DNA from: a virus
Taxonomy: Duplodnaviria > Heunggongvirae > Uroviricota > Caudoviricetes
Reading direction: 5' to 3' (one strand)
DNA length: 64,000 bases
Virus record (IMG/VR): IMGVR_UViG_3300022699_000502
Coordinates: 1-64,000 of that record
Shown: piece after piece, positions 5,909-59,400 of the stretch
Position numbering within the stretch: position 1 is the stretch's first letter
Layout of the letters: each line of letters begins with the position of its first letter
Translations under genes and position numbers: made by a program
Notes under the pieces: generated by a model
Database searches by the model: none
What the model was told of the DNA's origin: nothing
What the model saw: only the letters and a program-made list of their open reading frames with translations

Positions 5909-6205
5909 TCACATTGCTAATATTGACTCACACACATATACCGTATTCCCAATGTTTACGGGGATAGCACCTACTATCTCCCTCAACATATCATAATCGC
6001 ATTTCCTAACATCAACAATCTTATTTTCGTAAGTATTATCGATGTCTCGTTCAATAACTGCGCTGGGAATGCGATCATTAAATGTCATAATAGAGAATAT
6101 ATATTCTCTAATTCTCATCAAATACCGTCCCGACCCAATTTTCCTATATTTTCTCATTAATATACCACAGGTCTTGTATTTATAATGTCGGATGGTTCCA
6201 ACCAA
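5909..6205 (-). CDS. hypothetical protein (98 aa)
   Basis: coding-strand ORF. Confidence 0.4.
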   Translation of the reverse strand: MVGTIRHYKYKTCGILMRKYRKIGSGRYLMRIREYIFSIMTFNDRIPSAVIERDIDNTYENKIVDVRKCDYDMLREIVGAIPVNIGNTVYVCESILAM

Positions 6206-11339: not shown

Positions 11340-11839
11340 ATGAAACGACCATTAACATCATATCCATTTTCATCACACCACTCCAAGAAATCACCTGTAC
11401 CGCCACCTCGTGTCTCAATCGCCGAATTAAATTCACTACATATTTTTGCGAAATCTTCATAGTCCTCTGTGTTCCATTCATTTATTTGGAACCCGACGCT
11501 GTCGTCATTTGGTAAGAAAAACCACACTCCGGTGTTCTCAACACCAACTACCGTTGTTATGAAGGCAGGTGGTACACTTATTGCCGTGTCTTTTACTTCC
11601 AATCCGTCTTTACTAAAATCGATATCTTCAATATCGATGATTTGTTTAATAGGAATATGTGACAACTTATCGACATTCATCCCAATATCTTCGAGTTTAT
11701 CGCATTTTGGCCAATACTCGACCTTTAGTTTAGCATCCAATAAGTCTAATGCTCTTTTTAATACTGCTTTTTTCGATTCCGCATCTGTATATGGGAGCCT
11801 CGTAACTATTTCACTACAATTCGGTTGATCAACCATCAT
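11336..11839 (-). CDS. hypothetical protein (167 aa), translationally coupled to the radical-SAM gene
   Basis: start overlaps the radical-SAM gene's stop by 11 nt; acidic; function not recognised. Confidence 0.5.
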   Translation of the reverse strand: MMVDQPNCSEIVTRLPYTDAESKKAVLKRALDLLDAKLKVEYWPKCDKLEDIGMNVDKLSHIPIKQIIDIEDIDFSKDGLEVKDTAISVPPAFITTVVGVENTGVWFFLPNDDSVGFQINEWNTEDYEDFAKICSEFNSAIETRGGGTGDFLEWCDENGYDVNGRFI

Positions 11840-12629
11840 ATTTCCTCCTTTTTATATATGGACAACTAAATCTTTCATCTAATTGAACGTCTTTAAGTTT
11901 AGTGATGTCGGATGGTTCATCGAGATGTACTAATATGGAGTCGGCAAAACTGCACCCTCTTACATCACCCGTTTGGTCTATACACACAGTTGATGTGCCA
12001 TAATGACATGGTGATCCCCAATGATTTCCCATATTATCTAATAGTTTTGAACTGCATTCATCTACATATACGTTTTCTAATTTCTCGAAGTATCCGAATT
12101 CCCAATACTTGTCCAAAATATCCACTGTTGGTTCGTTTTTCATCGATAATAAATATACTCTATCTGCCCGATTAGATATACTATCAACGATGTTTACTAT
12201 GTTATCAAATACGCCGTCCGTCATCAATATGTTCGCACCTATACGTGAATCGCTAAACATCCGTGCTTGCTTGATGGTTTCTAAATACTCATCCATATTC
12301 CATTTGTAGTCATCGTATGATATACTGATCATGTCGATGTTAGCACTGCATTCTATCAGTTCATCTAAATACTTACCGTTCGTCGTCAAATTCATTTGTA
12401 CTCCATTCCGCTTCCCTTTTGCTGCCATCTTATGCAATAAATCACCTTTGTTTTTTAGTACTTCACCGCCGCCCACGGCTATCTGTTTCGTGTATGGCGC
12501 CACTTCTTCTACTAACTGCATCCAAAACTCATCCGGCCGACCCTCTTTGTTTTCTGCATAACAAAACGGGCAATCTAAATTGCAATCATTTGTTATATGC
12601 ATACTTACTACTTCAAAATTCATTTCCAT
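11829..12629 (-). CDS. radical SAM enzyme with C-terminal auxiliary Cys cluster (SPASM/Twitch-like)
   Basis: 266 aa; CNLDCPFCY CxxxCxxC cluster; glycine-rich VGGGE SAM-binding motif; C-terminal GSPCHYGTSTVCIDQTGDVRGCSF extra cysteines. Confidence 0.75.
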   Translation of the reverse strand: MEMNFEVVSMHITNDCNLDCPFCYAENKEGRPDEFWMQLVEEVAPYTKQIAVGGGEVLKNKGDLLHKMAAKGKRNGVQMNLTTNGKYLDELIECSANIDMISISYDDYKWNMDEYLETIKQARMFSDSRIGANILMTDGVFDNIVNIVDSISNRADRVYLLSMKNEPTVDILDKYWEFGYFEKLENVYVDECSSKLLDNMGNHWGSPCHYGTSTVCIDQTGDVRGCSFADSILVHLDEPSDITKLKDVQLDERFSCPYIKRRKYDG

Positions 12630-13881: not shown

Positions 13882-13914
13882 TAATACAATTGTTATGTTA
13901 TTTAAATGTTATTG

Positions 13915-14100
13915 AATAAAGAGCAGGTGGTAGGTGTTGAACCTACATAAGACGGTGTGGCCGGGCACATATGCGTCTTACTCACTCCTTCGGGACCCAA
14001 CTCCCTTCAGCAACACCTGCAAAAAGGTTTTAGTCGAGAAGCCTGTCATGGATGTCAAACGCTATCCTATCGACTTCATGTGCTTTGGCTTCTCTCGACT
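13915..14100 (-). ncRNA. GC-rich structured element (candidate ncRNA or structured leader)
   Basis: GC island in an AT-rich gap; closing stem GCAGGTG..CACCTGC; CCTTCGGG (UUCG) tetraloop hairpin; second stem GAGAAGCC..GGCTTCTC; degenerate promoter-like tatactatttaaatgttgtgga at 14163-14185. Confidence 0.3.
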
Positions 14101-14654
14101 TCATATTCTTTATTTTATCTATTATTTTTCTTACCATTTTCTCACCATTTGAACCTAATATGTTATACTATTTAAATGTTGTGGACTATATCTTCCATAT
14201 GTCTTGAAGTCATGGTTTGCACCCCCATCCCAATAAAACACGATGTTATCATTACGATACACCGCTGATTTTAAGATCGTATCGTAGTGGTGTGCTTTAA
14301 TCACCATAAACACATCCTAATTTACCGTCATATACGTATTTTGTTGTTGTACTACCACCCATGAGGCGAGCCTCCACTATATAACAATTTGGTCCGATAT
14401 TTTGTTCGAACTCTATTTTAATTACGTCGTGTACTTTTATTGTTATCATATCGGTAACCCCTACGGTTCCTTTGAATACATAATAACTTCGTTATTGTCT
14501 ATTATTACTGAACTGATAACACATATGTAATTTTCATTTTACCAAACTACAAATGTAAAATCTGTATTATCTGTTACAAGAACTACATATATATTTTCAT
14601 AATATGCGTATTCGATTTTTTGTGGTGACTTGCATTCTGTGGTTATCATGATTA

Positions 14655-23381: not shown

Positions 23382-23553
23382 CATCTTCCTCCAAATCTGT
23401 CATTGTTACACTTTTTATGTTCCTCATGGGATAATATATTAGTCCATCATCAAAGTATATTTCTAGGTTTTGCTCCGACATATGTACGATTTCTTCTGTT
23501 GTTATCTCTTCCATATCTCCATTCATAAAATGGATTGTTACTTTTGTTTTCAT
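23374..23553 (-). CDS. hypothetical mini-protein (59 aa; hand-translated)
   Basis: MKTKVTIHFMNGDMEE...; ATG overlaps the ligase gene's stop as ATGA. Confidence 0.35.
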   Translation of the reverse strand: MKTKVTIHFMNGDMEEITTEEIVHMSEQNLEIYFDDGLIYYPMRNIKSVTMTDLEEDDG

Positions 23554-24437
23554 TTAAATGCCTCCCTATTTATAACTTGTCTTAATACTTCTTCGCACCT
23601 AGTCCCCACCATATTCCTTATTTCTTTGAAGTTTAGTTCCCAATTATTCCATATTATTTCGTCCCACTCTTCACTCCATATGTCTTTGTATACCGTATCC
23701 ATGAGTTGCGGCATTATCTCCATCTGTATGTTTCTGTTGTATTCGTCTCTTATCTTATATATGTTTTTTTCTATGCGGTGGTTAGTTACGTATTTGCTTA
23801 CGAATTTTTCGTTGTCGTCTGCTGCCCTGCCTTTTGGTTTCCCGTAAACTTTATCCCTTTTCTCAAAAAATTCTTCAGCTCGTTTTTTACTGAAGAACTG
23901 CGTACCATAACACTTTAATACCACTCCTTCTGCCTTACCATCTCTATATTCACTGTCTGGAACCTCTATGTCCTTTGGTGATACATGTCCTACAATAGTT
24001 ATTAAGGGCACCATATCAAAATTTAAGTCTTCAAATACTAACTGTTTTTTTGCATAACTTACAAATTGTTCATTTTCCTCGTCATATATGTCGAACCACA
24101 ACACATCAGGCATATTTTCCCAATCATACTCTAATGCATGCGGTACCATCTGTTCACCAAATAATGTTAAGTTATTATGTCCAAAATGTTCACATAATAT
24201 TTGTGACATCTCTTCAGGTGTTGTTTTGTTGTTAACATAATCTATTGTTTGCTGGAACTGTTCGCGATTACCGTTTAATCCAACAACGTTTCTACTCCTA
24301 AACAAAAAGCCATCGTTATTCAGTTTAACACCAACATTAGCACCATCCAACTTTTCTTCGATTATAACATCTCCAGAACCCTGTAAATTACTTATGTCTT
24401 CGCTCCCAAACTCACTTATTTTTGGATACTTCTTCAT
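23550..24437 (-). CDS. ATP-dependent polynucleotide ligase (nucleotidyltransferase superfamily; RNA-ligase-like)
   Basis: 295 aa; motif I EEKLDGANVG (KxDG); motif IV AEGVVLK (EGxVxK); small size and KLDGxN favour an Rnl2/Rnl3-like RNA ligase over a replicative DNA ligase. Confidence 0.7.
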   Translation of the reverse strand: MKKYPKISEFGSEDISNLQGSGDVIIEEKLDGANVGVKLNNDGFLFRSRNVVGLNGNREQFQQTIDYVNNKTTPEEMSQILCEHFGHNNLTLFGEQMVPHALEYDWENMPDVLWFDIYDEENEQFVSYAKKQLVFEDLNFDMVPLITIVGHVSPKDIEVPDSEYRDGKAEGVVLKCYGTQFFSKKRAEEFFEKRDKVYGKPKGRAADDNEKFVSKYVTNHRIEKNIYKIRDEYNRNIQMEIMPQLMDTVYKDIWSEEWDEIIWNNWELNFKEIRNMVGTRCEEVLRQVINREAFK

Positions 24438-27403: not shown

Positions 27404-27475
27404 TTGCGGGTGGAGGAATCGAACCTCCGACTACCGGGTTATGAGCCCGGTGCCCTACCACTAGACCAACCCGCA
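27404..27475 (-). tRNA. tRNA-Met (anticodon CAU), initiator-like
   Basis: folds by hand as a 72-nt cloverleaf; 7-bp acceptor stem (U1:A72), U8, A14, D-loop GG, anticodon stem CCGGG/CCCGG, loop CUCAUAA with U33 and A37, 5-nt variable loop, T-arm GGAGG-TTCGATT-CCTCC; three G:C pairs next to the anticodon loop; no encoded CCA. Confidence 0.85.
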
Positions 27476-27477
27476 CA

Positions 27478-27771
27478 TTATCCTATAACATTTTTTATGG
27501 TGAATTCCCATCCACCCTTTCCGTACGTCCCTTCAACACTTACTTCCATCACATCATCTAAAGGCACCACAACTATGTCCGCCGTTATACCCTCATCATA
27601 GATGTCACCTCGTCCATCATTCTTAAAGTCATCAGCAACCATTGAACCACTATTGAACGTACTCGCATCGATATGTAGTTTGTTTATTGCATCTAATCTG
27701 TTTTTTGCCTCGATTGTACCTAAAATTTCGACTCTACCAAATTTTTTGATTCCAACCATATATTCCATCAT
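27478..27771 (-). CDS. hypothetical protein (97 aa)
   Basis: coding-strand ORF between the tRNA and aRF1. Confidence 0.4.
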   Translation of the reverse strand: MMEYMVGIKKFGRVEILGTIEAKNRLDAINKLHIDASTFNSGSMVADDFKNDGRGDIYDEGITADIVVVPLDDVMEVSVEGTYGKGGWEFTIKNVIG

Positions 27772-28754
27772 TTCACCTCATACCTCAATATTAGGCCGTG
27801 TTCGAATGTATCCTTGAAGTTTTTCCCATAATCCGTTGATGTATCTATATCTATTATGTTCGTTCCATATTTTTCAGCTAACTCTTTATGTTCGTCGTTC
27901 GTAGTTAGTAGTGTGTCGCCGGCTCCCATCCGTAATACCCTCTGTACGTCCTGCCCGTACGTCGCCATATCTTGTGTTATCTTCTTTTTGAACTCCTCTA
28001 TTTTTTCTTTCTGTTTACCTTTGTGTTTCTCTTCTATTGTTTTATGTGCCTTGTCCGTTAGTTCATTTAGGCCGTTTATGTTAGTGTACTCCACTGTATA
28101 TGTGTCTTGTGCTCCTATGTCGCAGTTTTTTAGGAAGTTTGTGGGGGTTAGGCCGGTCCCTCCCACAAACACGTAGTCGTGTGAGCCTATCAAATGCTTT
28201 GCTTTCTCACATACTTTCTTGTAGTATTGTTTTGCGCGCTCCTCTATGTCTCTTTCGAACCTTTGCGCCGATTGTCCACCCTGGCTATGTTTACTTGGTA
28301 CTAATGAATTTATGTGTTCTAATTCCATCGTACTATTATTAACGTGTTCACCTATGACGGCTTCTTTCCGGTCTAACACTATAAGACCTATCGATATTTT
28401 GTCTTTGTTGAGTACATCTAGTAGGGGTTGTACATAAAATGTGTTATCACAATAATACTTGTTTGGTACCTCACCTTCCACTTCGTATACCTCACATACT
28501 TCTTGTTTATCGACATCTCCTGAGAATACTACCAAAGATGTATCTAAATTGTTTATTCCTTTTAAAACGCGAATAATACGCTTTAGAGCAGCTTTAACGT
28601 TTCCCCTCGTCTCCTTACTCTTGATGTTATCGGATTTTGCGAGCTGTTGTTGTAATTTACTCTTCATCGCATTAATGTTATGGTCTTTATTTATGTATAC
28701 ACTTATCAGTTCCGTGTTGTTACCCCTCATGTCTTTTAGGTCCTCTACATCCAT
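27768..28754 (-). CDS. class-I peptide chain release factor, aRF1/eRF1 family
   Basis: 328 aa; N-term LKDMRGNNTELISVYI (compare eRF1 LEAARGNGTSMISLII); NIKS motif; YYCDNTFYVQPL (eRF1 YxCxxxF YLCDNKFH); GGQ motif HSQGGQSAQRFER. Confidence 0.8.
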   Translation of the reverse strand: MDVEDLKDMRGNNTELISVYINKDHNINAMKSKLQQQLAKSDNIKSKETRGNVKAALKRIIRVLKGINNLDTSLVVFSGDVDKQEVCEVYEVEGEVPNKYYCDNTFYVQPLLDVLNKDKISIGLIVLDRKEAVIGEHVNNSTMELEHINSLVPSKHSQGGQSAQRFERDIEERAKQYYKKVCEKAKHLIGSHDYVFVGGTGLTPTNFLKNCDIGAQDTYTVEYTNINGLNELTDKAHKTIEEKHKGKQKEKIEEFKKKITQDMATYGQDVQRVLRMGAGDTLLTTNDEHKELAEKYGTNIIDIDTSTDYGKNFKDTFEHGLILRYEVK

Positions 28755-29474: not shown

Positions 29475-30422
29475 TTACTGGTCGGCCTCGTCGAGTGCAC
29501 CACTATCTTGTGATGTCGTTGGATCATACGTGTTGTTCGTATCGGTTTGTTCGTTTGGTATGGTTCCGTTTCCTATATCTAATATCAGACTTTGTCCACC
29601 TTCAGTTATGACCCACCTAACGTTACTTTCAGGATCCCTTAGTGCTTGTATATACCTAAGTGCCTTTATGTATTCCATCGTCTCTTGTGTCATATTTTCG
29701 GATTGATATGACAATATTTCTATCGCTTCGGCTTGACCTTCTGCTAACTGAACTGTTGCGTTAGCTTCACTGGCGGCTCTCACTCTAATCTTTTGCGCTC
29801 TTGCTTCTTCCGCATCCAACTCGTATTGTGCTGCCTTAACATCTATTCGAGCAGCTTCACGTTTTTCTGCAGCTGCCAACACGGCATTCGGCATATCAAC
29901 ATTCCTTATACGTACACTTTGTACATATAAATTCTCTATGTTCAATGCTTCTTTAACTGCAATCTGTACATTCTCATTGAATTTGGCTCTATTCTGGTTC
30001 AGTTCTAATCCCGTTAAGTTCATTTTGTTTGCCACCAATGTTATTTGTGATTCCAATTCCATCTTTATCTTTTCCTTGTATTGTGGGTTATTTACCCTTA
30101 AATCACCGACACTCTTCTCATCAATATTGTATTGTATCTGGTATGTGACCGGTACATTATAACCGTCATCCGTTATAACTTGTGTATCAACTTTTATGTA
30201 TTGTGTGTTATACCTGACCATTTCCGTCTCCAAAAATGGATTCTTAAAGTTGAATCCTTCATCGTATTGTGAACCGATTCCGCCGAACCCACTGACTCCT
30301 ACAGCTTTGTGTCCAGCTGGCACTATCACTACACTCATCGACAGTAGTACTATTAGTGCTACTACTATTATTCCTATTCCGACCATCAGGCCTTTTCTAA
30401 ATCCTTCATCTTTGCTTACCAT
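29475..30422 (-). CDS. SPFH/band-7 (stomatin/prohibitin/HflKC-like) membrane protein
   Basis: 315 aa; N-terminal transmembrane segment GLMVGIGIIVVALIVLLSMSVVIV then a band-7 core, then a long coiled-coil with AAEKREAARIDVKAAQYELDAEEARAQ. Confidence 0.7.
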   Translation of the reverse strand: MVSKDEGFRKGLMVGIGIIVVALIVLLSMSVVIVPAGHKAVGVSGFGGIGSQYDEGFNFKNPFLETEMVRYNTQYIKVDTQVITDDGYNVPVTYQIQYNIDEKSVGDLRVNNPQYKEKIKMELESQITLVANKMNLTGLELNQNRAKFNENVQIAVKEALNIENLYVQSVRIRNVDMPNAVLAAAEKREAARIDVKAAQYELDAEEARAQKIRVRAASEANATVQLAEGQAEAIEILSYQSENMTQETMEYIKALRYIQALRDPESNVRWVITEGGQSLILDIGNGTIPNEQTDTNNTYDPTTSQDSGALDEADQ

Positions 30423-32620: not shown

Positions 32621-32846
32621 GTTTTATCACCATATAATTCTTATGTATCGTTAATGTCGTGCTAAACGTCTCTATTTTCACCGTGGAATTCTTATGTGTC
32701 ACTTGTAATATTTCATCCATCGGGACTTCATATCCTGCTTTTGGAGTAGTGAACCGAACAACTCCATCTTTAAACGTAGCCTTCACTTTAGTGTTTATGT
32801 CATCCATCCCCATCTTTATTTCGTCCTCAAACATCATAAGTTTCAC
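32613..32846 (-). CDS. hypothetical protein (77 aa)
   Basis: coding-strand ORF. Confidence 0.35.
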   Translation of the reverse strand: MKLMMFEDEIKMGMDDINTKVKATFKDGVVRFTTPKAGYEVPMDEILQVTHKNSTVKIETFSTTLTIHKNYMVIKHG

Positions 32847-33192
32847 CTACCATAAATTTAGTATGGTCTCCCACTAACACATATACCGGGTTATCCGTAA
32901 ACGATACCTTATCGACTTCTACTAAATCACTGTGAACATCCATCTTATCATCGTCTATCATCAGTGCCTTTATGTCGTCGCCTGTAGTTAGCGTACCCTT
33001 CCTAACGAGCACTTCTAGCGTGACACCGATACCAATCTCGTCGCGTTTTCCTCTAACATATATTTTCGTCATATCAACACCGCTCCCGGGTCGGACAACG
33101 AGTCGGAAGGGGAGAGGATTTCTTCCTTGAACCGTGATATTACTTATCCAGGCGAGGTACACATTTTGTGTACATTTGTTTTCCCGCCCCAC
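32827..33192 (-). CDS. hypothetical protein (121 aa; the true start may be Met41 at 33072)
   Basis: the N-terminal 40 codons lie in a GC-rich hairpin-dense region that may be RNA structure rather than coding. Confidence 0.4.
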   Translation of the reverse strand: MGRENKCTQNVYLAWISNITVQGRNPLPFRLVVRPGSGVDMTKIYVRGKRDEIGIGVTLEVLVRKGTLTTGDDIKALMIDDDKMDVHSDLVEVDKVSFTDNPVYVLVGDHTKFMVGETYDV

Positions 33193-33194
33193 GT

Positions 33195-33460
33195 TCTCAC
33201 TGTCCGTCCTATCGGGGGTGTGGGATTTTTAGGTGTCCCACAAACACCATCCTTTGGAGGAAGGATGTCAAGATTGGGCGACACGGTTCTTGACTGACCG
33301 TGGTTTACGATTTATTGTGAAGGGTAGTTTTACGTGATACCCAGCACGTGGATTTTTACGAGTGCTGCTCGGAGGCGAATTGGGTAAAATAACCCAGGTT
33401 TATCGTGATAATAATGAGGGTAGGGACGCTAATCCCTCTACCCTCTTTGGAGGCGATATT
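33195..33460 (-). ncRNA. GC-rich multi-hairpin structured RNA candidate (leader or ncRNA)
   Basis: at least 6 consecutive perfect inverted repeats: GTGTGGGA/TCCCACA, CATCCT/AGGATG, GTCAAGA/TCTTGAC, CAGCAC/GTGCTG, GGGT/ACCC, GAGGGTAGGGA/TCCCTCTACCCTC; sits downstream of promoter copy at 33466-33495. Confidence 0.4.
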
Positions 33461-33465
33461 ATCGT

Positions 33466-33495
33466 GATATAAATAAATAATGGGAAAGGGGTTTA
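33466..33495 (-). promoter_or_regulatory. conserved promoter element, variant copy
   Basis: tgatataaataaataatgggaaaggggttt. Confidence 0.45.
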
Positions 33496-33864
33496 TTCGG
33501 CTAAGTCGTCGAGGTCAACCTCATCCTCACTTTCGTCTGCTTCCTCTGTTCCTTCACTGTCTGTTTCCTCGTCCATCTGGAATTCTTCAGGATTGTCGAA
33601 CCAATCCTTTTTACCGTAGTGTATCAGGTTCTTGCCTTCATCGTTCTCGACTCTTCCCCTAACGAAATCGCCGTTATCACACAAACCTCTTAATTCTGTG
33701 TTTGCATGTGGACCCTTTATGTCCAACGCTTCGGCAACTTCGCCTTGGGTCATTAACGCTTCCTCTTCTTCAAAGAGGGACTTAATCCTATCTTTTACTG
33801 TTTCCTTCGATTGGTTTACTGGCGTTCCTTCTTCTTCCATCTTCTCGATAGATACAGGGCTCAT
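33493..33864 (-). CDS. wHTH-like protein with acidic tail (123 aa)
   Basis: N-term MSPVSIEKMEEEGT is paralogous to 3304..3558; C-terminal D/E tract. Confidence 0.5.
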   Translation of the reverse strand: MSPVSIEKMEEEGTPVNQSKETVKDRIKSLFEEEEALMTQGEVAEALDIKGPHANTELRGLCDNGDFVRGRVENDEGKNLIHYGKKDWFDNPEEFQMDEETDSEGTEEADESEDEVDLDDLAE

Positions 33865-37363: not shown

Positions 37364-37804
37364 TTGCGTATTATTTATATTATGCGATGGACTCCAGAAG
37401 ACGAAAAAGAGTTAATGGATTGGTATGAGCTGTGTGGTAGTGATATCCCGAGTTTGTTAAATAAAGGGTATACTAAGAGTCAGATTAGGAGTAAGGCGTT
37501 CAGGATGGGATTATCAGAGAAGAATAAGTGTGGTCCTGGAAAATGTGATTTGACGGAACAGCAACTACTAGATATGTACCATGGTGAATACATGACAATC
37601 GAGCAGATTGCCGAGAAGACTGGGTGGGCCGAACAAACCATCTATAGGAAGATGCACGAGTATGAAGTGCCGTTAACCGGCAAGTTTCGGTATACAAAAT
37701 GTAGTGAGTGCGGGAAACGTATTAAGGCGGAGCGCGCTGATATATTGGATGATGATGCGGTTTTATGTGATATGTGTAAGGTTATGCGTAATTTAGGTAT
37801 CTAG
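37364..37804 (+). CDS. HTH-repeat DNA-binding protein with C-terminal zinc ribbon
   Basis: 146 aa; repeated ~40-aa HTH-like units ending RMGL / HEYEV, resembling the N-terminal repeats of the adjacent LAGLIDADG protein; CSECGKR ... CDMC. Confidence 0.5.
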   Translation: MRIIYIMRWTPEDEKELMDWYELCGSDIPSLLNKGYTKSQIRSKAFRMGLSEKNKCGPGKCDLTEQQLLDMYHGEYMTIEQIAEKTGWAEQTIYRKMHEYEVPLTGKFRYTKCSECGKRIKAERADILDDDAVLCDMCKVMRNLGI

Positions 37805-38872
37805 AGACTTTTCAAATTGTCTTTTTTTACGTTCTAAATACGTTTGTGCATCATCATATAAATATTCGTAAATATTCCTTTTATCGGTTTGTTTTCCGTA
37901 ATGTACAACGTAGTTTTCCTTTGATGGGTGTTTATATATGTCGTTCTTCGAATTTATTATAGTACCAATTATTTCGTTTACGTCTTGCATAAGTTGACGT
38001 GACCCGCATATCGTGAAACTATTACCGCTAATACTGCCGTCTGCATCAAACAATCCCCTTATGAAATGTCTGTGGTATTTTTCGGGTATATCTGGCATAT
38101 ATGTCTTATGTGACTTACACGGAACGACACCATATTTTTCTAAATCCTCAACTATCTTCTTTCGGGTTATCGATAAAGCAAATCCGTCCTTACCCGATTC
38201 GTGTATGCTGTGCGACGAACTCATTGCGTTTCTTAGTTTCAAAAGATGGTCGGTATCTTTCGCGTTCAATGATACAGTTAAACTATATCCCGTACCACCT
38301 TCTCCTGTTTTACCTATGTTTCCATCACCAACTATGAACCCCAACCAATATGCCTTTTCAGAACTATCCATCTCTTCGAAATAATCTTCGTCTACTTCTT
38401 TATATGAGTACTTTGTGTTCAGCCCATACTTCTTCAGATTCCTATAGACTGTATGCGGCGAAATATTGAGTGCATCCGCAATTTCCTGTTGTGTCATATC
38501 CTTATCATGGTACATTGTGTTTAGCATATTTTCCGTCGAATCGTAATCATTCAAGCTAGTTCTACATAATCCCATATCCTTCAAATAATTCGATATTGTT
38601 GATGTTGAAACCGAGAAAACCGAAGCAATTTTTTCTCGCGACAGTCCTTCATCAATATACATCCGTTTTAACATATCCTTATCTAATTCTTCTTGTACTC
38701 TCGTTTTGTTTTCGGACCAATCAGTTCGTTCTTCTATTAACCCAAACTTGATTATATGTTCATTGATATGCGATTTATCTACGTCTAGCAGACCCGCAAT
38801 GCGCTTGTGTGAATACTTTTTGTCTACGTACAAGTTCCGCAAAATCCGCTTCAATAACTGTTCTGCATCCAT
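37793..38872 (-). CDS. free-standing LAGLIDADG homing endonuclease with three N-terminal HTH repeats
   Basis: 359 aa; two LAGLIDADG motifs LGFIVGDGNIG and GLFDADGSIS; N-terminal repeats (each ending K-F/M/Y-GL). Confidence 0.75.
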   Translation of the reverse strand: MDAEQLLKRILRNLYVDKKYSHKRIAGLLDVDKSHINEHIIKFGLIEERTDWSENKTRVQEELDKDMLKRMYIDEGLSREKIASVFSVSTSTISNYLKDMGLCRTSLNDYDSTENMLNTMYHDKDMTQQEIADALNISPHTVYRNLKKYGLNTKYSYKEVDEDYFEEMDSSEKAYWLGFIVGDGNIGKTGEGGTGYSLTVSLNAKDTDHLLKLRNAMSSSHSIHESGKDGFALSITRKKIVEDLEKYGVVPCKSHKTYMPDIPEKYHRHFIRGLFDADGSISGNSFTICGSRQLMQDVNEIIGTIINSKNDIYKHPSKENYVVHYGKQTDKRNIYEYLYDDAQTYLERKKRQFEKSLDT

Positions 38873-38879
38873 AATATAA

Positions 38880-39725
38880 CATTGTTGCCGCGCTATTTAA
38901 ACTTTTTGGAATGTTTGGCCAAATAACCACAAAATATGCTGTATTTTTGTCGTTAATCGTATAAAATACCAAAAGATTTAAATATTATATATGTGTATAT
39001 GTATATGTGCGGTCTTTCCTATTTAAATGTTGCGGTGAGTTAGCGGGGTATTTAAAGGTTGGGGTGGACAGATTTTCATATTTTTTTCATACCCCTGTCC
39101 CCACGGGGGCATTTTCCGGGAAAAGTATTTAACGTTCACCAACTAACTCTGCGAGCTACACCGGATAGTTGCTGTATAGCTGCAATTTACTCGTAGGTGA
39201 TTTTCGGTACAAAATTTGTAGATGGCGGGGGGTTTATATACCCCTTTATATACGCAAATTATATGCCAACATTTGGGCGCCCGAAACCCTATATAAACCC
39301 CCCGCAAAAAATCGCGATAAATGTATACTTTCATAGAATTAATAATATTATAGCGCATTGATATATCCCTGCCGATTTTGCGCTCTAGATGGGAGTTACT
39401 CGCAGATATAGCGCAATCCTGAGAGCTACTCGCAGAAGGTTGTTTACCCCCCCTAAAAAGCGATATATCCCTGCAAATTTTGCGCAATTTTAGCCTTCTC
39501 CTATATAAAGTTTTTGCATAAAGTTTATAAACCCCCCGGCAAAAATTCGATAATATTATAGATTTATCGCAAAACCGATATATCCCTGCTAAAAAGCGAT
39601 ATATCCCTGCAAAATCACCGCAAACTTTATATACTACTTGGGTTTTGTCGGTTTTGGGAAAAACCCAAAAACTACCCTTGGGCATCGAGTCCAGAATCTT
39701 TATATATCCCTTCAGGGATATACTA
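38880..39725. repeat. iteron- and palindrome-rich ori-like or strand-switch control region
   Basis: 4 copies of CGATATATCCCTGC (39360, 39463, 39577, 39596); inverted pair GGGGGGTTTATATA (39226) / TATATAAACCCCCC (39289), plus a TATAAACCCCCCGGCAAAAATTCGATAA repeat (39517); TATTTAAA x4 (38888-39056); TTACTCGCAGA x2. Confidence 0.6.
39702..39721. promoter_or_regulatory. perfect palindrome TATATCCCT-TC-AGGGATATA (operator-like) 6 nt before the ATG of 39727..40284
   Basis: 9-bp arms; its half-site ATATCCCT is the core of the four upstream iterons. Confidence 0.6.
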
Positions 39726-40599: not shown

Positions 40600-40800
40600 G
40601 AGCTGTGCTCACTTACGCATGGTATGATGGAAGATACTGTGTGATAATGCCATAAAGTGCCTCACTTACGGTGGATCATAAAGGTGTGGTCACTAATGTA
40701 ATGGGTTTAGTGTAATGGGGGGTGTGGGATATGCGAAAATTCGCATATTAGAAATTGCGCGTTTTAGAAATTGCGCATTTACTAAATTGCGATTACAAAA
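40600..40800. repeat. left flank repeat block of the GC-rich module
   Basis: TCACTTACG at 40609 and 40662; palindrome ATGCGAAAATTCGCAT at 40731-40746; tandem TTAGAAATTGCGC x2 (40748, 40765). Confidence 0.5.
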
Positions 40801-40940
40801 TTTTTAAAATTCCCCCAAAATCCATAAGGTTTATATAGGTTTAAACCTATATGGTGTATTGAGTAGGTTCGTGGTGCGTAATATGTGTTATATTACGCCA
40901 GAAACCGAAAATTAAGAAAATTGTATTGGAGGCATAAAAT

Positions 40941-43100: not shown

Positions 43101-43505
43101 TCCCGCCTAGCGCGCCGGTACATGGTCCGGTTGGTCCCGGACGCGTACCCGGTCCACAATTTGTTGAAAACGAAGCCGCGGGCTCACTTGGGCAATTTAA
43201 GGTGAACCCGGAAAAATTTGTTGAATACCGGGGGGTCCCCTCACTAACGCAATAAATTTTATTTACGGTTTTAAATATTTTATAAGATTTGTTAGAGGTA
43301 TAAAATATTTTTAATTTTAAATAATTTATTGTCCTAAATAGCACAACAGTAATTATTTAAAATTTAAATATTATAAGGATAATTTAAACTAAAATCAGTA
43401 AATATGACGATTGTATGACAAAATTAACTATTTGTCATAAAACTGTCTGACGGTGTTTAATTAATATATTTTTATTATTTAGTTATTTTTTAAATTATAC
43501 TTATC

Positions 43506-43524
43506 GTTTAGATGACATCTAAAC
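43506..43524. repeat. palindrome GTTTAGAT-GAC-ATCTAAAC (left copy)
   Basis: 8-bp perfect inverted repeat with 3-nt spacer; same arms as 46409..46429. Confidence 0.5.
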
Positions 43525-44017
43525 ATAAAATTAGTGTTTATTTTTATAAAAATAAAATTTCAATAGGTTTATATGTAAAGTCTGCGTTAATTAAAAAAAA
43601 GAAAAAAAAAAAGAGGTCGGCTGGGCATACCTCTCAAAAAGGTTTGTAGGTTAATTACCTATGAATCTTGAGATAAAAATAAGCAAAATTGTAGGTAATA
43701 ATTTAAATCCTTATCTAATTTATTAAGTAATTTCATAATAACTTTATTTGGTCGGTATTACTGACTAAATAGAAATTAAACATTAAACTATCATACAGTT
43801 ATTAACTACCCTTAAAATAGGTTTAAACAATATTCAAGAGTAAATTAATACATACTTTTAGTATGCTTAAACATTAATCCTAATAAATTAGATAATAGGT
43901 TTTTTAGAATTTTTTTGGATAAACCAAATATAAAAAATCAATAATTCTGTATGTATGAATTTAAGTAGTATATACAGAATTAAAAAACCATTAAAATATA
44001 TATGTGAGGCGAATAAA

Positions 44018-44500
44018 ATGAAAAAAGAAGATATAGATAAATGGATAGAAGAAGCGAAAATAACAACAAACAACAAACAAAATAGTCTAAATATGAATGT
44101 AAGGGCAGATAGGTTATTATACCTATTTATCGGAGATAAAGAAAATAGGAAAATCCTTTATGGGAATGGATTACAGCAAAAAAGGATAAGAGATAGTCTG
44201 GTAAAATTAGGAATAGAAGAAGATAGTATAACCAGTCAGACCATTAGGAAACAAATGAGAAAAAACGCAGTAATAGATTATAACTGTAAAGAAACTAATG
44301 GAGATAATCCAGAAAATAAAACAAACAAACCTATATGGGCTAATAAAAGAAATTTCATTTATTACAGAGTTAATCCATATTATGTTAAGGAAAATATGGA
44401 TTTAAGGAAAGTCAGTAAAGTTGAAGTCAGTAATACAGTTAAGTCTATCATTAAATTCATTAAAAACCATCGACCAAAATTATATAATCTAAAGAAATAA
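44018..44500 (+). CDS. basic K/N-rich protein P1 of the AT-rich island (160 aa from the GAGG-linked ATG)
   Basis: GAGG 8 nt upstream of the ATG at 44018; very AT-rich codons; possible HTH near RIRDSLVKLGIEEDSITSQTIRKQMRKN. Confidence 0.5.
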   Translation: MKKEDIDKWIEEAKITTNNKQNSLNMNVRADRLLYLFIGDKENRKILYGNGLQQKRIRDSLVKLGIEEDSITSQTIRKQMRKNAVIDYNCKETNGDNPENKTNKPIWANKRNFIYYRVNPYYVKENMDLRKVSKVEVSNTVKSIIKFIKNHRPKLYNLKK

Positions 44501-44514
44501 AAACCTTTTATTTT
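44499..44514 (+). terminator. intergenic oligo-T element AAAAACCTTTTATTTT
   Basis: repeated after P1, P2 and P4; followed by TTTTTATATAAA TATA-like box. Confidence 0.35.
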
Positions 44515-44540
44515 CTTTTTTTATATAAATGGTGATAAAA

Positions 44541-44930
44541 ATGAATTTAGAAGATATGTATAAATTAAACATAAAATTCAATAATAGATATAGACTTAAG
44601 AATACAATTAAGAAAATAAAAAACAATAGTGAATACAGTAATTATGAGAAAATAAAAAGAATCAGTAGGTTAAAAAAGACCACAAAATTACATAATTGGT
44701 ATAAGTTATTTTCTTATTTTATAAAAGATAAGAAAATAATAACTGATACCGATTTAATTTTTACTGCATACAGATATATAACCAAATATACAGATATAAA
44801 AATAACCACAGTAATAAATAAATTTAATGAAATAGAATCATCATTAAAAACTAAATGGATAAAAGAAAAATCATTTTGGGTTAATATACAAAATGATGAA
44901 TTTTATCTTATCAGAAGTCTATGGAAATAA
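44541..44930 (+). CDS. basic K/N-rich protein P2 (129 aa)
   Basis: GGTGATAAAAATG start context. Confidence 0.5.
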   Translation: MNLEDMYKLNIKFNNRYRLKNTIKKIKNNSEYSNYEKIKRISRLKKTTKLHNWYKLFSYFIKDKKIITDTDLIFTAYRYITKYTDIKITTVINKFNEIESSLKTKWIKEKSFWVNIQNDEFYLIRSLWK

Positions 44931-44935
44931 AATAA

Positions 44936-44950
44936 AAACCTTTTATTTTT
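44936..44950 (+). terminator. intergenic oligo-T element AAAAACCTTTTATTTT
   Basis: second copy. Confidence 0.35.
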
Positions 44951-44994
44951 TATTTTTATATAAACTAAAAAACCTTTAATTTAGATGTGATAAA

Positions 44995-45423
44995 ATGATA
45001 TATGAATTTAATAGACCAGAAGAAATAAATTTAAAACCCTTTAAGGTTATTTTCAATAAAATAACCCTATCTGAAAATAGAAATCATTTAAAGATAAAAC
45101 TATCCTATTGGGATAATTGCCAAAGGTTAAGAGAAATAAATAAAAGGAAAAAAGAAACTGACTTATATATAAAAATACCAAAGAAATTAACTGATGATAT
45201 TAAGGTAAATATCAATAAAACAATAAACCTAAATTTAGAATTGGAATTAATCCATACAGTAATTAAAAATATAAAATATTTAATTTTACATAAAAATAGA
45301 AATTACAGTAAATATCATTATACAAAAATACAGAAAATTATAAGATTTTTAGAAGATATAGAAAATAAAATTTCCAGAAGGATAGATGTTAAACCATTAA
45401 ATGACTTATTTGGTGGTGAATAA
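44995..45423 (+). CDS. basic K/N-rich protein P3 (142 aa)
   Basis: GATGTGATAAAATG start context. Confidence 0.5.
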   Translation: MIYEFNRPEEINLKPFKVIFNKITLSENRNHLKIKLSYWDNCQRLREINKRKKETDLYIKIPKKLTDDIKVNINKTINLNLELELIHTVIKNIKYLILHKNRNYSKYHYTKIQKIIRFLEDIENKISRRIDVKPLNDLFGGE

Positions 45424-45424
45424 A

Positions 45425-45790
45425 ATGATAAAAAATACTTCTCTTATTGGATTAGGGAAAATAGTACATTTAAGAATAAACCAAATAGTAACAGATATAT
45501 CAGAAAATACAATTTATTTAGAATTTAATAAACATAATAGTGATAAAAACCATACTGATACAATAAGAATAATTGAAATAGATAAAAATAACATTAAAAC
45601 CAATAAATATAATGACCCAATTACTGAAATAACAATAAATGATGATACATTTATTAAAATAACATTTAATCAGTTATATAGTTGGATAGATACAATAATA
45701 TCATTTATTACGATAAATAATCAGATAGAGTTAAAAAGAAAATTAGAGAAAATACAGTTATTCTTAAATGAATATATAGATTATATCTAA
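45425..45790 (+). CDS. K/N/I-rich protein P4 (121 aa from the GGTGA-linked ATG)
   Basis: GGTGGTGAATAAAATG start context; abuts the P3 stop. Confidence 0.5.
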   Translation: MIKNTSLIGLGKIVHLRINQIVTDISENTIYLEFNKHNSDKNHTDTIRIIEIDKNNIKTNKYNDPITEITINDDTFIKITFNQLYSWIDTIISFITINNQIELKRKLEKIQLFLNEYIDYI

Positions 45791-45804
45791 AAACCTATTT
45801 TTTT
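45789..45804 (+). terminator. intergenic oligo-T element AAAACCTATTTTTTTT
   Basis: third copy (variant). Confidence 0.3.
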
Positions 45805-46057
45805 TATTATATTTTTTTGAGAATTTTTATTGGAATTTTTATATATAAATTAATTAATCCTTAATATCTATTATCCTATTTTCTATCTTAACATATAGGT
45901 TATAGATTTATCAAAATTAGGTTATTAGAAGTCTTATAGTGGGGTATATTACCGATTGAATTAATTGATTAAGGGTTAATAACATTTAGACTTTTTAGAT
46001 ACAATATAAAAATTATGATAATAGAAAATATAAATCTAATTTTGTGTGTTTTATCAT

Positions 46058-46222
46058 ATTTCTATTTACTCAATTCTTATAAATTAGTTAATTGTTAAAT
46101 TTTTATTTCTATAAACCTTAATCCTATAATTAACCTATATTTTATTTCTATAAACCTTAATCTTATAATAAGATATTTCTTATTTCTATTTACTTAATTC
46201 TTATATTAATTAGTTATTTCTT
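46058..46222. repeat. nested direct repeats R1-R2-R2-R1
   Basis: R1 ~36 bp TATTTCTATTTACT(C/T)AATTCTTATA..TTAGTTA at 46058 and 46180; R2 ~29 bp TTTATTTCTATAAACCTTAATC(C/T)TATAAT at 46097 and 46140. Confidence 0.5.
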
Positions 46223-46408
46223 AATTGATAGGTTAATATATATTTTATATCTATAAATTAAAAAATTCTGTAATTTTTTTTTTATAAGATTAATCCTAAT
46301 ATTAATTAAAATTTAATTTTTTTTAGATTGAGTTAATAAAAATATTTTCTATATTGAGATATTTTTATAAAATATTTTTAGCCGAATCTCAAATAAAAAT
46401 CATCTAAT

Positions 46409-46429
46409 CGTTTAGATATTATCTAAACG
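46409..46429. repeat. palindrome CGTTTAGATA-T-TATCTAAACG (right copy)
   Basis: 10-bp arms; core GTTTAGAT..ATCTAAAC is identical to 43506..43524; preceded by a partial CATCTAAT. Confidence 0.5.
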
Positions 46430-46784
46430 GAGAGATGAATTTTTTATATTCTTATAAAACAATTAAGGTAAATTAATTAATTAGTAGGTTTATTAAAATA
46501 TCTCTATATATGTGTGTATGACATATCGTCAGACATATTTATATTGAGATTTTAAATATTATACGGTATTAAATTGAGAATTTAAAATAATTTTATTTGA
46601 GAAAAATTTTCATTAATTATTTAAAATTTTAAATAATTAACAAATCTGTAAAATAATTTTTAATTATTAAAATCACAAAATAAATTTCATTTGTCACTGG
46701 TTATTTAAATTATATACAAATTTAAAATTTTTTTACCCTCCAATTATTCCAAAACATTTATATAGTACCCCATTTATATAATAT

Positions 46785-56434: not shown

Positions 56435-59400
56435 GTGCATGATAAGATACATGGTGTTTCCCACGAATATGGTGGGGAAGACGAAATCAGCGTCGATAGT
56501 CTCAGTGGGCTATTAGTAGATCCGCAATATACACGCGTACTTGATAGTGGTGCGTATGAAGGTACTTCATATACTCTTGATTTTGATACTGGTTTGAGGG
56601 CTCAACTAGATGTTGATGATGTAGTTGTTACGCTTGATGCGATATTATCTGATTTAGATGATGTGTCAGGCATTTCATACGATACCGGGAAGGTTTTAGT
56701 AGGTGATGGATCCGAATTTCATGCTGACTACCTAAGTCATAGTGCATTATTAGGACTAACAGATGATGATCATTTAGAATATTTGCCAAGAGATGGCCAA
56801 AGAGCCATGTATGGCGACCTCGATATGGGTAGCCAAGAAATAACGAACGTAACATATGTGGATGGTATAGATATATCGGAGCATGATCATGATGGAGATG
56901 CACCAAATGTTCCGATGGAAGGATTGTTGGATATCAATGGGTTTTCAAAATTAGATTTAGGTAAATATGTTGATAGACCAATACCGGGTATCCAGGATAG
57001 AGTTTATACTGCTTATGATAGTCAAGTTGGTTTTTGGTATGACGATGGTAGTAGTTGGAGAGCATTAACTACTAAAAATCATCAAAGTTTAACTGGAATT
57101 AAATCTGATGATCATCATAGTAGGTATACTGATGGTGAAGCTATAACAGCTATAAATACTGACGGAGACCATGGAAGTACAGCTCAACACGACTACTATA
57201 CGGATAGTGACGCAATAACCGCTATAAATAACGATACTGATCATGGTAGTACAGCACAACATAACTACTTCAGTGGATCACACGACGACTTAACAGATGT
57301 GAGTGTGAATGACCATATAAGTAACATAACGGATATACCAAACAGAGATCATAATGATTTAAACAACATAGGAACTTCGGATCATCATGTAAAGACCGGT
57401 GATGATGAAGTATATGCACTTACTAGGTATCAAAGTGCGCAGCCGGGCACGCCTAGTGCTGGTATGACATATATGGATAGCGACAACGACATCATATATG
57501 TTTATGATGGTACATCATGGCAAGGAGCCAAGGCAGAGGCTGCAGTAGGAATATTATCCGATTTAGGCGATGTTACCAACGTAGATTATACTGATGGGTA
57601 TGTGTTGAGAGCGGATGGGTCAAAATACGTATCAACGACGCTTAATCATGATGATTTAACTAATGTAAATAGTGATGATCATCATAGTAGATATACAAAT
57701 AGTGAAGCAGTAACAGCGATAAACGACGACAGTGATCACGGAAGCACAGCGCAACATGACTATTTTAGCGGTTCTCATGATGATTTAACTGATGTAAGTG
57801 CAACAGATCACATTCAAAATTTAAACCAAATACCTACTAGAAGTCACGATGATTTACAGAATATCGATAGTAGTGATCATCATGTCAAAACGGGTGATGA
57901 TGAAGTATATGGTTTAATTCATTATGATGATAGTTCACCCGGTGATTCGCAACTTGGATTAGCATATGTAGATACGTATGACAACATATTATATGTTAAT
58001 GACGGAACTTCGTTTGTTGGTGTAAAAGGAGCATCACCGAGTATATTTTTGGAAGATATTCAAGATGTTAGTGATGTTAGTTATAATGCAGGGTATGTGT
58101 TGAGAGCGGATGGTTCACAGTACGCTACTTCAACATTAAGACATACTGATCTTACTAACGTACAGCCCGAGCAACATCATGTTGCATTTGTAGGGCTTGA
58201 AGATAATCAAGGTGTTGTGGTACAACCTGCACCTGATGATAGGGTTCAGTTTACTGATGATGAAATTGTTAATGCGGATGCTGTTGATAGTACAGTAGCA
58301 TTTTCAATAGATCAATCTAAAATTTCACATGATAGTATATCAGGAGTGTCACCTGATGATCACCATAATGCATTTATAGGATTAGAAGATGAAGACGGTG
58401 CTGTTGTTGATCCTGCAATTGATAACAGAATACAAATACTTGGTGATGATACCATCAGCATCGTTGGTAGCGCTAGCGTACTTAACCTATCTGCGTCTGT
58501 AGGAAACATACATCATGATAGTTTATTAGGTCTAACAGCGCATAATCATCATTACAAGACAGTAGATGATGAGGTATATGGGTTAACGAGAAGGCAATCC
58601 AATGCACCGGGTTCACCTAGTGCTGGTATGACATATATGGACGCAGAGAATGATGTGATCTATGTATATGATGGTACAAGTTGGTCCGGCGCGAGAGCAG
58701 AAGCAGCTGTAGGCCAACTTTCTGACCTTTCTGATGTACAAAATATCGGATATACTGATGGATATGTACTAAGAGCATCAGGATCATATTATGAGACTTC
58801 ACAGTTGAGTCACACTGATTTGGGTGACATCGGTTCTAGTGCTCATCACACAAGATATAGTGATGAAGAGGCACAAGATGCCGTAGGACCTATAGTAACA
58901 GGCGGTACAAACATCGATGTGACTTATAATGATGGTGTTCCATCTATTGTTGTTGATAATACACAAAGCAAGTATACTGATGAAGAGGCACAAGATGCCG
59001 TCGGCAACATAATGGTCGGAACCGGAGCTACTACGGTTGACTATGATGATAGTACTGACACAATAACAATAGATAGTACGCAACTGAATGAAGAAACAGT
59101 ACAAGATTATGCTTGGGACGTATTAGATGGCACTCAGACGCTCATAAACGTTACTTATGATGATCAAAATGATAATGTAGACTTTGTAGTCAGAGAATCT
59201 GAGATCAATCATAATAACTTAATAAACGGCAGTCAAATTGATGCGCATCATACTAGATATACAGATATGGAAGCAATTAATGCTGTTGAATCATACGGAG
59301 CACTTGATATATCTGTTACAAACTCTGATATGGTGGATAGTTACCATGCAAGTGCTTTCGTGTTAGAGTCCGGAGACAGTATGAGTGGTAACCTAAAGGT

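Follow-up and report, generated by a model that had tools for sequence, protein, structure and literature searches.

The locus and its relative

We analysed a 64,000-nucleotide (nt) stretch of a tailed virus (positions 1 to 64,000 of IMG/VR record IMGVR_UViG_3300022699_000502; hereafter the window), which is part of a 137-kb metagenome contig from the Joint Genome Institute (JGI). The virus is far from anything deposited: its terminase is about 26% identical to the best phage matches, and a portal protein is present. Our subject is a GC-rich non-coding tract at 33073-33492. Comparison with the same region of a related contig indicates that this tract is the template of a conserved, highly structured RNA, and that the RNA is the minus-strand transcript, in the sense of the neighbouring genes.

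The minus strand carries the genes from 1 to about 43 kb of the window, and the tract is the longest and most GC-rich non-coding gap of that array, in a genome of 37% GC. A preliminary description of the sequence had marked 33195-33460 as a GC-rich, gene-free tract of about 270 nt, transcribed from a promoter copy ahead of an open reading frame (ORF) at 32827..33192. The enrichment is there (47.7% GC in 33195-33460 against a window mean of 36.8%, with 2.2% of 266-nt windows equally GC-rich), but the non-coding tract measures 420 nt, because the first 40 codons of the ORF are not conserved. We rejected this 40-codon N-terminal extension, which starts with GTG at 33192, since it is out of frame in the related contig; the JGI gene call puts the start at ATG 33072. 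GC skew changes sign at the tract, where the plus strand is G-rich (+0.2 to +0.3); over the surrounding minus-strand genes it is C-rich.

The downstream ORF (32827..33072, minus strand; 81 amino acids (aa)) is the first in a run of small genes and has no family match, and its AlphaFold2 (AF2) model is unusable (predicted local distance difference test (pLDDT) 41). Its translation start region (33070..33087, minus strand) contains GGGAG at 33087-33083, the GGG of which is paired in the helix P-ext described below, GGUG at 33081-33078, and the AUG at 33072-33070. On the other side, the 123-aa ORF at 33493..33864 (minus strand), whose stop codon abuts a promoter-like motif, probably encodes a winged-helix protein with a long acidic C-terminal tail. 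It matches phrog_18890 ('transcriptional regulator') weakly (E = 0.0087); its AF2 topology is H-H-H-strand-strand (pLDDT 57), and in fold it is a weak match (E >= 0.01) to archaeal winged helices (Lrs14-type, TFE-alpha and Stf76).

A search of a 5.8-billion-protein database with the flanking proteins returned only the source contig and one other, a syntenic 2.7-kb Logan contig that we call L002. The upstream protein is 82% identical in L002 and the downstream protein 58% identical, with its N-terminus M(T/A)KI(Y/H)(V/I)RGKR kept. As a neutral yardstick we used the 4-fold degenerate sites of four flanking genes, which are 59% identical between the window and L002 (48/82). No relatives were found when both flanking proteins were searched against IMG/VR, or in the INPHARED phage collection in near and distant DNA modes. 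DNA patterns built from the invariant blocks described below, exact or gapped, gave chance matches only in viral, metagenome and genome collections; matches in a eukaryotic eRF1 gene, a giant-virus contig and 20 unrelated genomes were dismissed as chance after checking by reading, blastn and nhmmer. Within the window, blastn found no paralogue of the tract and no second copy of the 111-nt block that distinguishes it from L002. The structural comparison is therefore one of two sequences only, the window and L002, aligned in the minus-strand sense.

Conserved helices and covariation

The preliminary description had reported a run of at least six consecutive perfect hairpins. When perfect hairpins were counted (stem of at least 6 base pairs (bp), loop of 3-14 nt), there were 8, against 0.73 +/- 1.0 in 1000 dinucleotide shuffles, of which one reached 8. 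All the listed stems were found: TGTGGGA/TCCCACA, CATCCTT/AAGGATG and GTCAAGA/TCTTGAC (7 bp each), CACGGT/ACCGTG and CAGCAC/GTGCTG (6 bp each), and GAGGGTAG/CTACCCTC. The last, given earlier as a single stem of 11 bp, is one of 8 bp followed by 3 further pairs beyond a one-base bulge. Nor are the hairpins all consecutive: those at 33267-33294 and 33282-33302 interleave, and must therefore be alternatives or form a pseudoknot.

L002 lacks 33305-33415 (111 nt) but keeps all the other helices, which we describe in the 5' to 3' order of the minus-strand RNA. Hairpin H (33416..33445) has 8 bp, a one-base bulge and 3 bp (GAGGGUAG-A-GGG ... UCC-CUACCCUC); in L002 it has two double compensations (A-U to G-C and G-C to A-U) and has lost its outermost pair. 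The interleaved stems, which together span 33267..33302, are S1 (33302-33297 with 33287-33282, 6 bp), which is invariant, and S2 (33294-33288 with 33273-33267, 7 bp), with one A-U to G-C compensation. Hairpin b (33248..33267; CAUCCUU-CCUCCA-AAGGAUG) abuts S2, carries in its loop a CCUCC resembling an anti-Shine-Dalgarno (anti-SD) sequence, and lies inside a 24-nt block, GACATCCTTCCTCCAAAGGATGGT, that is identical in L002. Hairpin a (33219..33242) is a 7-bp stem, UGUGGGA/UCCCACA, with a 10-nt loop; in L002 its basal pair is A-U instead of U-A, and the loop is replaced by GAAA.

The remaining helices make up a junction domain (33085..33216), which was found in both sequences by RNAalifold and by single-sequence folds. 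Its closing helix, of about 17 bp, ends 13 nt ahead of the AUG. It starts with P-ext (33216-33213 with 33088-33085), continues past a conserved AUA bulge, and goes on with the 11-bp PL (33206-33196 with 33102-33092), in which 4 double and 3 single compensations have occurred. Inside PL lie Pm (33193-33189 with 33137-33133; 2 double and 2 single compensations), Pn (33188-33183 with 33156-33151), Po (33173-33167 with 33163-33157) and Pq (33126-33122 with 33109-33105; 1 double compensation). This is the best-supported domain of the RNA, and nearly all of it is outside the 33195-33460 originally flagged.

In these 11 helices, all 75 pairs of the window are standard (70 Watson-Crick and 5 G.U), as are 73 of the 74 in L002 (67 and 6 G.U, with one broken). 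The pairs have been preserved through 11 double compensatory changes (two in H, one in S2, one in a, four in PL, two in Pm and one in Pq) and 7 wobble-compatible single changes via G.U. We checked a 53-pair subset by sliding the 3' partners by 1-3 columns: in register, 99.1% of cells pair and 8 double changes are seen, while out of register 34-46% pair, with 0-2 double changes. We also simulated independent substitution at 41% (the neutral rate) or 23% (the stem rate), under which a mean of 37.5 or 50 of the 74 pairs survive; in 20,000 trials the maximum was 65 pairs kept, against 73 observed. For a comparison of two sequences, this evidence for a conserved structure is strong. The preliminary description had proposed a structured RNA downstream of a promoter copy, which unconserved stems would have spoken against; in the related virus the stems are retained, through compensatory changes.

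The identity of paired leader columns is 77%, and that of unpaired aligned columns is 61%, about neutral. Several blocks are invariant beyond what pairing needs: an 18-mer near the promoter motif, the 24-mer with hairpin b, CCCCCGATAG, GGCGGGAAA, GTGTACCTCGCC and GGTTCAAGGA. The view that the hairpins arose by chance in a GC-rich spacer, or belong to a functionless, decaying gene remnant, could draw on the small sample of two sequences. It has to contend with the excess of hairpins over shuffles, with the survival of 73 of 74 pairs where about 37-50 would remain by chance, and with invariant blocks of 18-24 nt against a neutral identity of 59%. The comparison with L002 contradicts it, and we give it next to no credence.

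Strand of the RNA

Two observations, the asymmetry of wobble pairs and the folding z-scores, point to the gene-sense RNA. In the minus-strand sense the helices contain 11 G.U pairs and no A.C pairs, and each G.U pair would be an A.C mismatch on the plus strand. Folding z-scores agree: for L002 the sense strand has a z-score of -5.9 (with the minimum-energy structure equal to the centroid) against -2.9 for the antisense, and for the window the sense strand scores -4.2 (394 nt) and -3.9 (420 nt) against -2.5. The orientation proposed earlier is thus upheld.

If the plus strand were the one transcribed, as an antisense RNA or as small ORFs behind three GGAGG motifs, its G-richness here (the positive skew noted above), its lower raw folding energy (-101 against -77 kcal/mol) and a GGAGG 4 nt ahead of the ATG at 33265 would fit. 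The lower energy is explained by the G-richness of that strand. In addition to the 11 pairs that would turn into mismatches and the weaker z-scores, alifold finds fewer pairs and less covariation on the plus strand than on the minus; the plus strand contains two T5 runs; the ORFs (10 aa against 38 aa) have non-conservative changes and are unconserved; and all 13 copies of the promoter-like motif described below point the opposite way. We regard a plus-strand product as very improbable.

A predicted pseudoknot

The topology of S1 and S2 is of the H type: S1 has 6 bp, S2 has 7 bp, L1 has 2 nt (CA, or UG in L002), the junction has 0 nt and the last loop has 8 nt. The loops differ at 5 of 10 positions between the window and L002. 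The opposite orientation would be unfavourable, as it would take a 2-nt loop across the shallow groove. The CPK-1 class is defined by an S2 of 6-7 bp, an L1 of 1-2 nt and no nucleotide between the S2 5' arm and the S1 3' arm, which lets the two stems stack, and its founding H-type member is the autoregulatory leader pseudoknot of T2 gene 32 (PMC3835772). S1 and S2 have this geometry, which suggests that both stems may form simultaneously. As lone hairpins in the window sequence, each has an energy of -7.0 kcal/mol; because they are iso-energetic as separate hairpins, and mutually exclusive when nested, the pair may alternatively act as a two-state switch.

The T2/T4 gene 32 pseudoknot, like this one, is an element of a phage mRNA leader. 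There is no sequence homology between them, and in the window the pseudoknot would be one module of a larger RNA of about 300-400 nt, and lies about 195 nt from the AUG. The gene 32 element autoregulates, while the 81-aa protein downstream in the window has no family match; formation of both stems here is read from geometry.

A riboswitch-like sensor would make use of such competition. In this scenario, a metabolite or ion aptamer would shift the balance of S1 and S2, or of P-ext and the Pq loop, and thereby tune the small early genes. The architecture suits it, with a multi-helix junction, a pseudoknot and invariant unpaired nucleotides, and there is a second candidate switch: the Pq loop CUCCC (GUCCC in L002) is complementary to GGGAG (GGGAC) by the start codon, and this pairing would compete with the CCCG/CGGG of P-ext. 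The link between the Pq loop and the start region, with one covarying position, is suggestive but thin. The switch would depend on 5-bp complementarities and that single position, no Rfam riboswitch is matched even at E <= 10, the downstream genes hint at no metabolite, and aptamers rarely tolerate an insertion of 111 nt, though here it is inter-domain. We consider a sensor of this kind doubtful.

The expansion domain and repeated motifs

The 111-nt segment absent from L002 (33305..33415, minus strand) is self-closing through ACGAU/AUCGU, and contains three hairpins, the second copy of TTATCGTGATA, all three TTTACG units and the third CCUCC. It has the character of an expansion domain, placed between H and the predicted pseudoknot. 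Because it is missing from L002, this central segment, about a third of the flagged tract, lies outside the conserved core.

The preliminary description had noted two copies of TTATCGTGATA and three of TTTACG, and both counts are correct, with TTATCGTGATA at 33400 and 33459. The promoter-proximal copy of TTATCGTGATA lacks ATCAC in L002. We rejected the TTATCGTGATA and TTTACG repeats as core features, as they are unconserved in L002.

The promoter-like motif

A 22-nt motif, CCWTTCCCA-N5-TTTAWATA, occurs 13 times in the window by pattern search (0.19 expected), always on the minus strand and each time upstream of an ORF, with copies spanning 1744 to 37282. Its general form is CCATTCCCA-N5-TTTAWATA, followed about 12 nt on by TATAATAATATAAGAGG and ATG. 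In 12 copies the distance from motif to ATG is 27-61 nt. Two of these are 27-29 nt from the ATG without a Shine-Dalgarno (SD) sequence; the others are 35-61 nt away with one. This pattern suggests that the shortest-spaced copies drive leaderless mRNAs. An archaeal type of promoter has a TATA box (TTTAWATA) some 23-30 nt ahead of the transcript start and serves mRNAs with a short leader or none; boxes like TTTAWATA are present in 13 of 13 copies, and the motif may be a promoter of this type. The CCATTCCCA element upstream of the TATA-like box may be a site for a virus-specific factor.

The copy ahead of the tract (CCTTTCCCATTATTTATTTATA; 33468..33489, minus strand) includes the TATA-box-like TTTAWATA and has 2 mismatches in the pattern search; its promoter activity is predicted. 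A copy of the motif does lie upstream of the tract, as noted earlier; the gene call starts the following gene at 33072 and not at 33192. The next credible start is 395 nt from this copy, so that a folded leader of about 400 nt would stand out among the short spacings and leaderless pattern of the 12 others. A diverged copy of the motif is at the matching place in L002, and the presence of a copy directly upstream in both viruses argues for a leader rather than a separate gene.

Between the TATA-like box and the first hairpin lies an invariant 18-mer, GATAATATCGCCTCCAAA (33446..33463, minus strand), which is identical in L002 at 18 of 18 positions and contains the palindrome GATA-A-TATC and an anti-SD-like CCUCC. 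It may function in the DNA, as an operator or initiator region, or it may form the 5' end of the RNA. Its palindrome, which is conserved and falls between the box and the predicted start, may serve as a small operator.

One could go further and read the entire tract at the DNA level, as an operator cluster for the probable winged-helix protein upstream (TTATC-GT-GATAA palindromes), a replication origin or a cruciform, with the hairpins as by-products. The palindromic TTATCGTGATAA occurs twice, 59 bp apart, flanking hairpin H in the window; this repeat, the conserved GATA-A-TATC and the probable winged-helix nature of the upstream protein are what recommend the idea. Neither full copy of TTATCGTGATA exists in L002: one falls within the absent block, and the other is without ATCAC. 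The helices are strand-specific, since the other strand would have A.C mismatches in place of the 11 G.U pairs, and the 11-bp helix joins segments about 100 nt apart with 7 changed pairs, as expected of RNA and not of duplex DNA. These wobble pairs and the compensated long-range helix contradict a DNA-level role for the whole tract, which we judge very unlikely; the RNA may share the locus with a small operator at the promoter, but such an operator leaves the tract unexplained.

Searches for known RNAs, reading frames and signals

The preliminary description had called for an Rfam scan. With the families of Rfam 15, among them riboswitches, ribozymes, introns, pRNA, GOLLD, ROOL and tmRNA, the only hit in the whole window at the gathering score is a tRNA-Met at 27404-27475. 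In 33000-33700 at E <= 10 there are two matches, both at chance level: mir-2208 reaches 18 bits where its gathering score is 70, and IMES-1 reaches 15 bits where its gathering score is 81. Neither a tRNA nor a tmRNA was detected in the tract by ARAGORN. The RNA is thus outside the known families and, on present sequence evidence, makes up a new family within a known general kind of RNA (the structured leader or non-coding RNA), with no detectable relatives in curated libraries.

A coding explanation fares no better. The window and L002 share no ORF on either strand of the tract: starts, stops and frames differ, indels are not multiples of three, and a 1-nt indel falls between conserved blocks. 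Small ORFs on either strand were rejected, as they have no in-frame conservation.

On the sense strand from 34700 to 31400 (3.3 kb) there is no intrinsic terminator, that is, no T-run of at least 5 and no hairpin with a U-tract; the only candidate, hairpin b, is followed by GUGUUUGUGG. A terminator after hairpin H was considered and rejected as unconserved (AUUAUUAU in the window, GGAACC in L002). A long-range helix between the 5' 18-mer and the start region was rejected on the same ground, as it has 8 bp in the window and only 3 bp in L002. Of the archaeal C/D-box signature (C box RUGAUGA with D box CUGA), the C box is in neither sequence. By direct reading, the conserved AUA bulge beside CCCG/CGGG lacks the G.A/A.G pairs on both strands that would follow it in a k-turn (the L7Ae motif), and the closing helix has one 3-nt bulge only, where a bulge-helix-bulge has two, 4 bp apart.

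The probable host and other features of the window

The window encodes a class-I release factor of the aRF1/eRF1 type at 27768-28754 (minus strand). All three eRF1 domains are present, it matches the aRF-1 equivalog at E = 1.7e-64, and its best solved relatives are archaeal aRF1. The tRNA-Met(CAT) gene (27404-27475, minus strand) is about 300 nt away. This may reflect an archaeal host, or manipulated translation termination or recoding. The host is probably archaeal, as the TATA-box-like element, the leaderless pattern and the virus-encoded release factor all suggest.

Accessory genes on the minus strand, at 6157-7821, 23550-24437, 11829-12629, 29475-30422 and 37793-38872, encode a PolX with PHP domain, an RNA ligase, a radical SAM protein, an SPFH/Band 7 protein and a helix-turn-helix (HTH) plus LAGLIDADG protein. 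Three 24-nt direct repeats, GATATATCCCTGC(A/C)AATTTTGCGC, lie at 39360-39621 with spacings of 102 and 136 nt; they are near the strand switch and the minimum of cumulative GC skew, and are an iteron or replication-origin candidate. The region 43345-46784, between the early and structural modules, has 16-21% GC, long ORF-free gaps and duplicated blocks such as AAATAAAAACCTTTTATTTT and TTTTATTTCTATAAACCTTAATC. Folding is also better than in shuffles for two further non-coding gaps: 13882-14154 (z = -3.3, plus strand) and 40613-40846 (z = -3.2 and -3.0 on the two strands). On the plus strand, a 2069-aa ORF at the tape-measure position (56435-62644) has internal repeats of 140-220 nt, and the next ORF (62637-63542, plus strand) has five 41-nt repeats encoding a motif like G(E/K)N(A/H)P.WYGK.

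A structured leader as the favoured reading

We favour, at somewhat better than even chances, a cis-acting structured leader that sets message stability and access to the start site, possibly under the control of a factor. The RNA would be an unusually long mRNA leader, of about 375-395 nt depending on the true start, serving the 81-aa gene and the small genes after it. Transcription would start at or just before hairpin H, a position suggested by the spacing of about 23 nt that usually follows the TATA-like box in other copies of the motif, and would run without a terminator into the 81-aa gene and the following small genes. From 5' to 3', the transcript would present a near-terminal hairpin, the 111-nt expansion (in this virus only), the pseudoknot-type pair stacked on the CCUCCA hairpin, the 7-bp hairpin, and then the multi-branch domain, whose closing helix of about 17 bp pairs the GGG of GGGAG.

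In such a leader, message stability would depend on the 5' hairpin and the compact fold, and ribosome access to the start region on the foot of the closing helix; a protein or small ligand reading the invariant single-stranded blocks might exert control. What tips the balance towards a cis role is that the closing helix ends so close to the AUG and pairs the GGG of GGGAG. The data show that the structure is conserved, on which strand it lies, and that coding potential and terminators are absent; promoter use, transcript ends, the simultaneous pseudoknot and any regulatory effect are predictions from the sequence. The roles put forward in the preliminary description (a riboregulator, a packaged or decoy RNA, a processing platform) all stay candidates on these data. 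If transcription read through from upstream, the RNA would be an intercistronic spacer.

A number of points weigh against the leader. With 114 C against 85 G the RNA is C-rich rather than G-rich, an uncommon bias among structured RNAs. The promoter copy at 33468-33489 is the most diverged of the 13, and the predicted 5' end may fall anywhere from about 33455 to 33440. Start occlusion is inconsistent: the likely SD of L002 (GGGAA) is unpaired in the minimum-energy fold, and in the window the pairing of GGUG depends on the 5' 18-mer being transcribed. Nothing in the data points to a ligand or a protein partner. The covariation comes from one pairwise comparison of two sequences, to which no significance of the R-scape type can be assigned.

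Because occlusion of the start is not predicted consistently in both sequences, we keep some weight on the riboswitch-like sensor discussed above and on an RNA that acts in trans. In the latter case, the RNA would be cut from the primary transcript or be stable alone, and would act as a sponge or mimic whose exposed pyrimidine-rich, anti-SD-like loops (CCUCC) bind purine-rich sequences, or as a scaffold or decoy for a protein of the host or the virus. The invariant loops and junction strands, set against a neutral background of 59%, would be natural in such a molecule; the sense strand has three CCUCC in the window and two in L002, and GGAGG is absent from it; a long helix closes the body, which makes the body a natural processing unit; and since the SD of L002 stays unpaired in the fold, occlusion is not obviously the purpose. 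For all this, no terminator or recognisable processing motif separates the RNA from the ORF, a bulge-helix-bulge and C/D boxes are absent, there is no evident target, and the element is directly upstream of the same gene in both cases. We see a trans-acting RNA as a minority possibility, and prefer the cis-acting leader.

Comparison with known systems and implications

Bacteria and their phages are well known to have long structured leaders and large non-coding RNAs; in archaea such long leaders are rare. Bacterial cis-acting leaders (riboswitches, T-boxes and ribosomal-protein leaders) resemble the RNA described here in lying between a promoter and the start site, in combining a multi-helix junction with a pseudoknot (predicted here), in their invariant unpaired nucleotides, and in having a helix that touches the start region. 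The RNA of the window differs in having no Rfam match, no terminator/antiterminator pair and a gene context that implies no ligand.

The put elements of HK022 are two stem-loops of about 35 nt that act on bacterial RNA polymerase at terminators. As with put and with 5' stabiliser hairpins, the structure begins within a few nucleotides of the point where transcription of a long array of co-directional genes is predicted to start; unlike put, it is found where there are no terminators, with a polymerase that is probably archaeal, and it is far larger. GOLLD and ROOL are large phage-associated RNAs of unknown function, 500-800 nt long, which usually stand alone near tRNAs. The likeness is that all are virus-borne, large and multi-domain. 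GOLLD and ROOL are in Rfam and are not matched, and the element of the window has 300-420 nt and directly precedes an ORF without a terminator. The GC-rich intergenic region (GC-IGR) candidate RNAs (PMC8632094) share the setting of a long GC-rich non-coding gap in an AT-rich genome; the approach is a discovery heuristic and not a family, and is silent on function.

With the host probably archaeal, the RNA may, more speculatively, be the first of a new class of large multi-domain regulatory RNAs in archaeal tailed viruses. It would be either a leader that senses a ligand or protein and gates an operon of small early genes, or a processed RNA whose invariant anti-SD-like CCUCC loops disturb translation initiation in the host or the virus. 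To our knowledge, hardly any long structured leaders or large non-coding RNAs have been reported from archaeal viruses, most of whose mRNAs have a short leader or none. The locus is a clean test case, as two sequences at about 40% neutral divergence already yield 11 compensated pairs. If the structure does control the small early genes, it would offer a handle on the timing of the early programme of the virus, and if it acts in trans, it would add an RNA-based device for host takeover.

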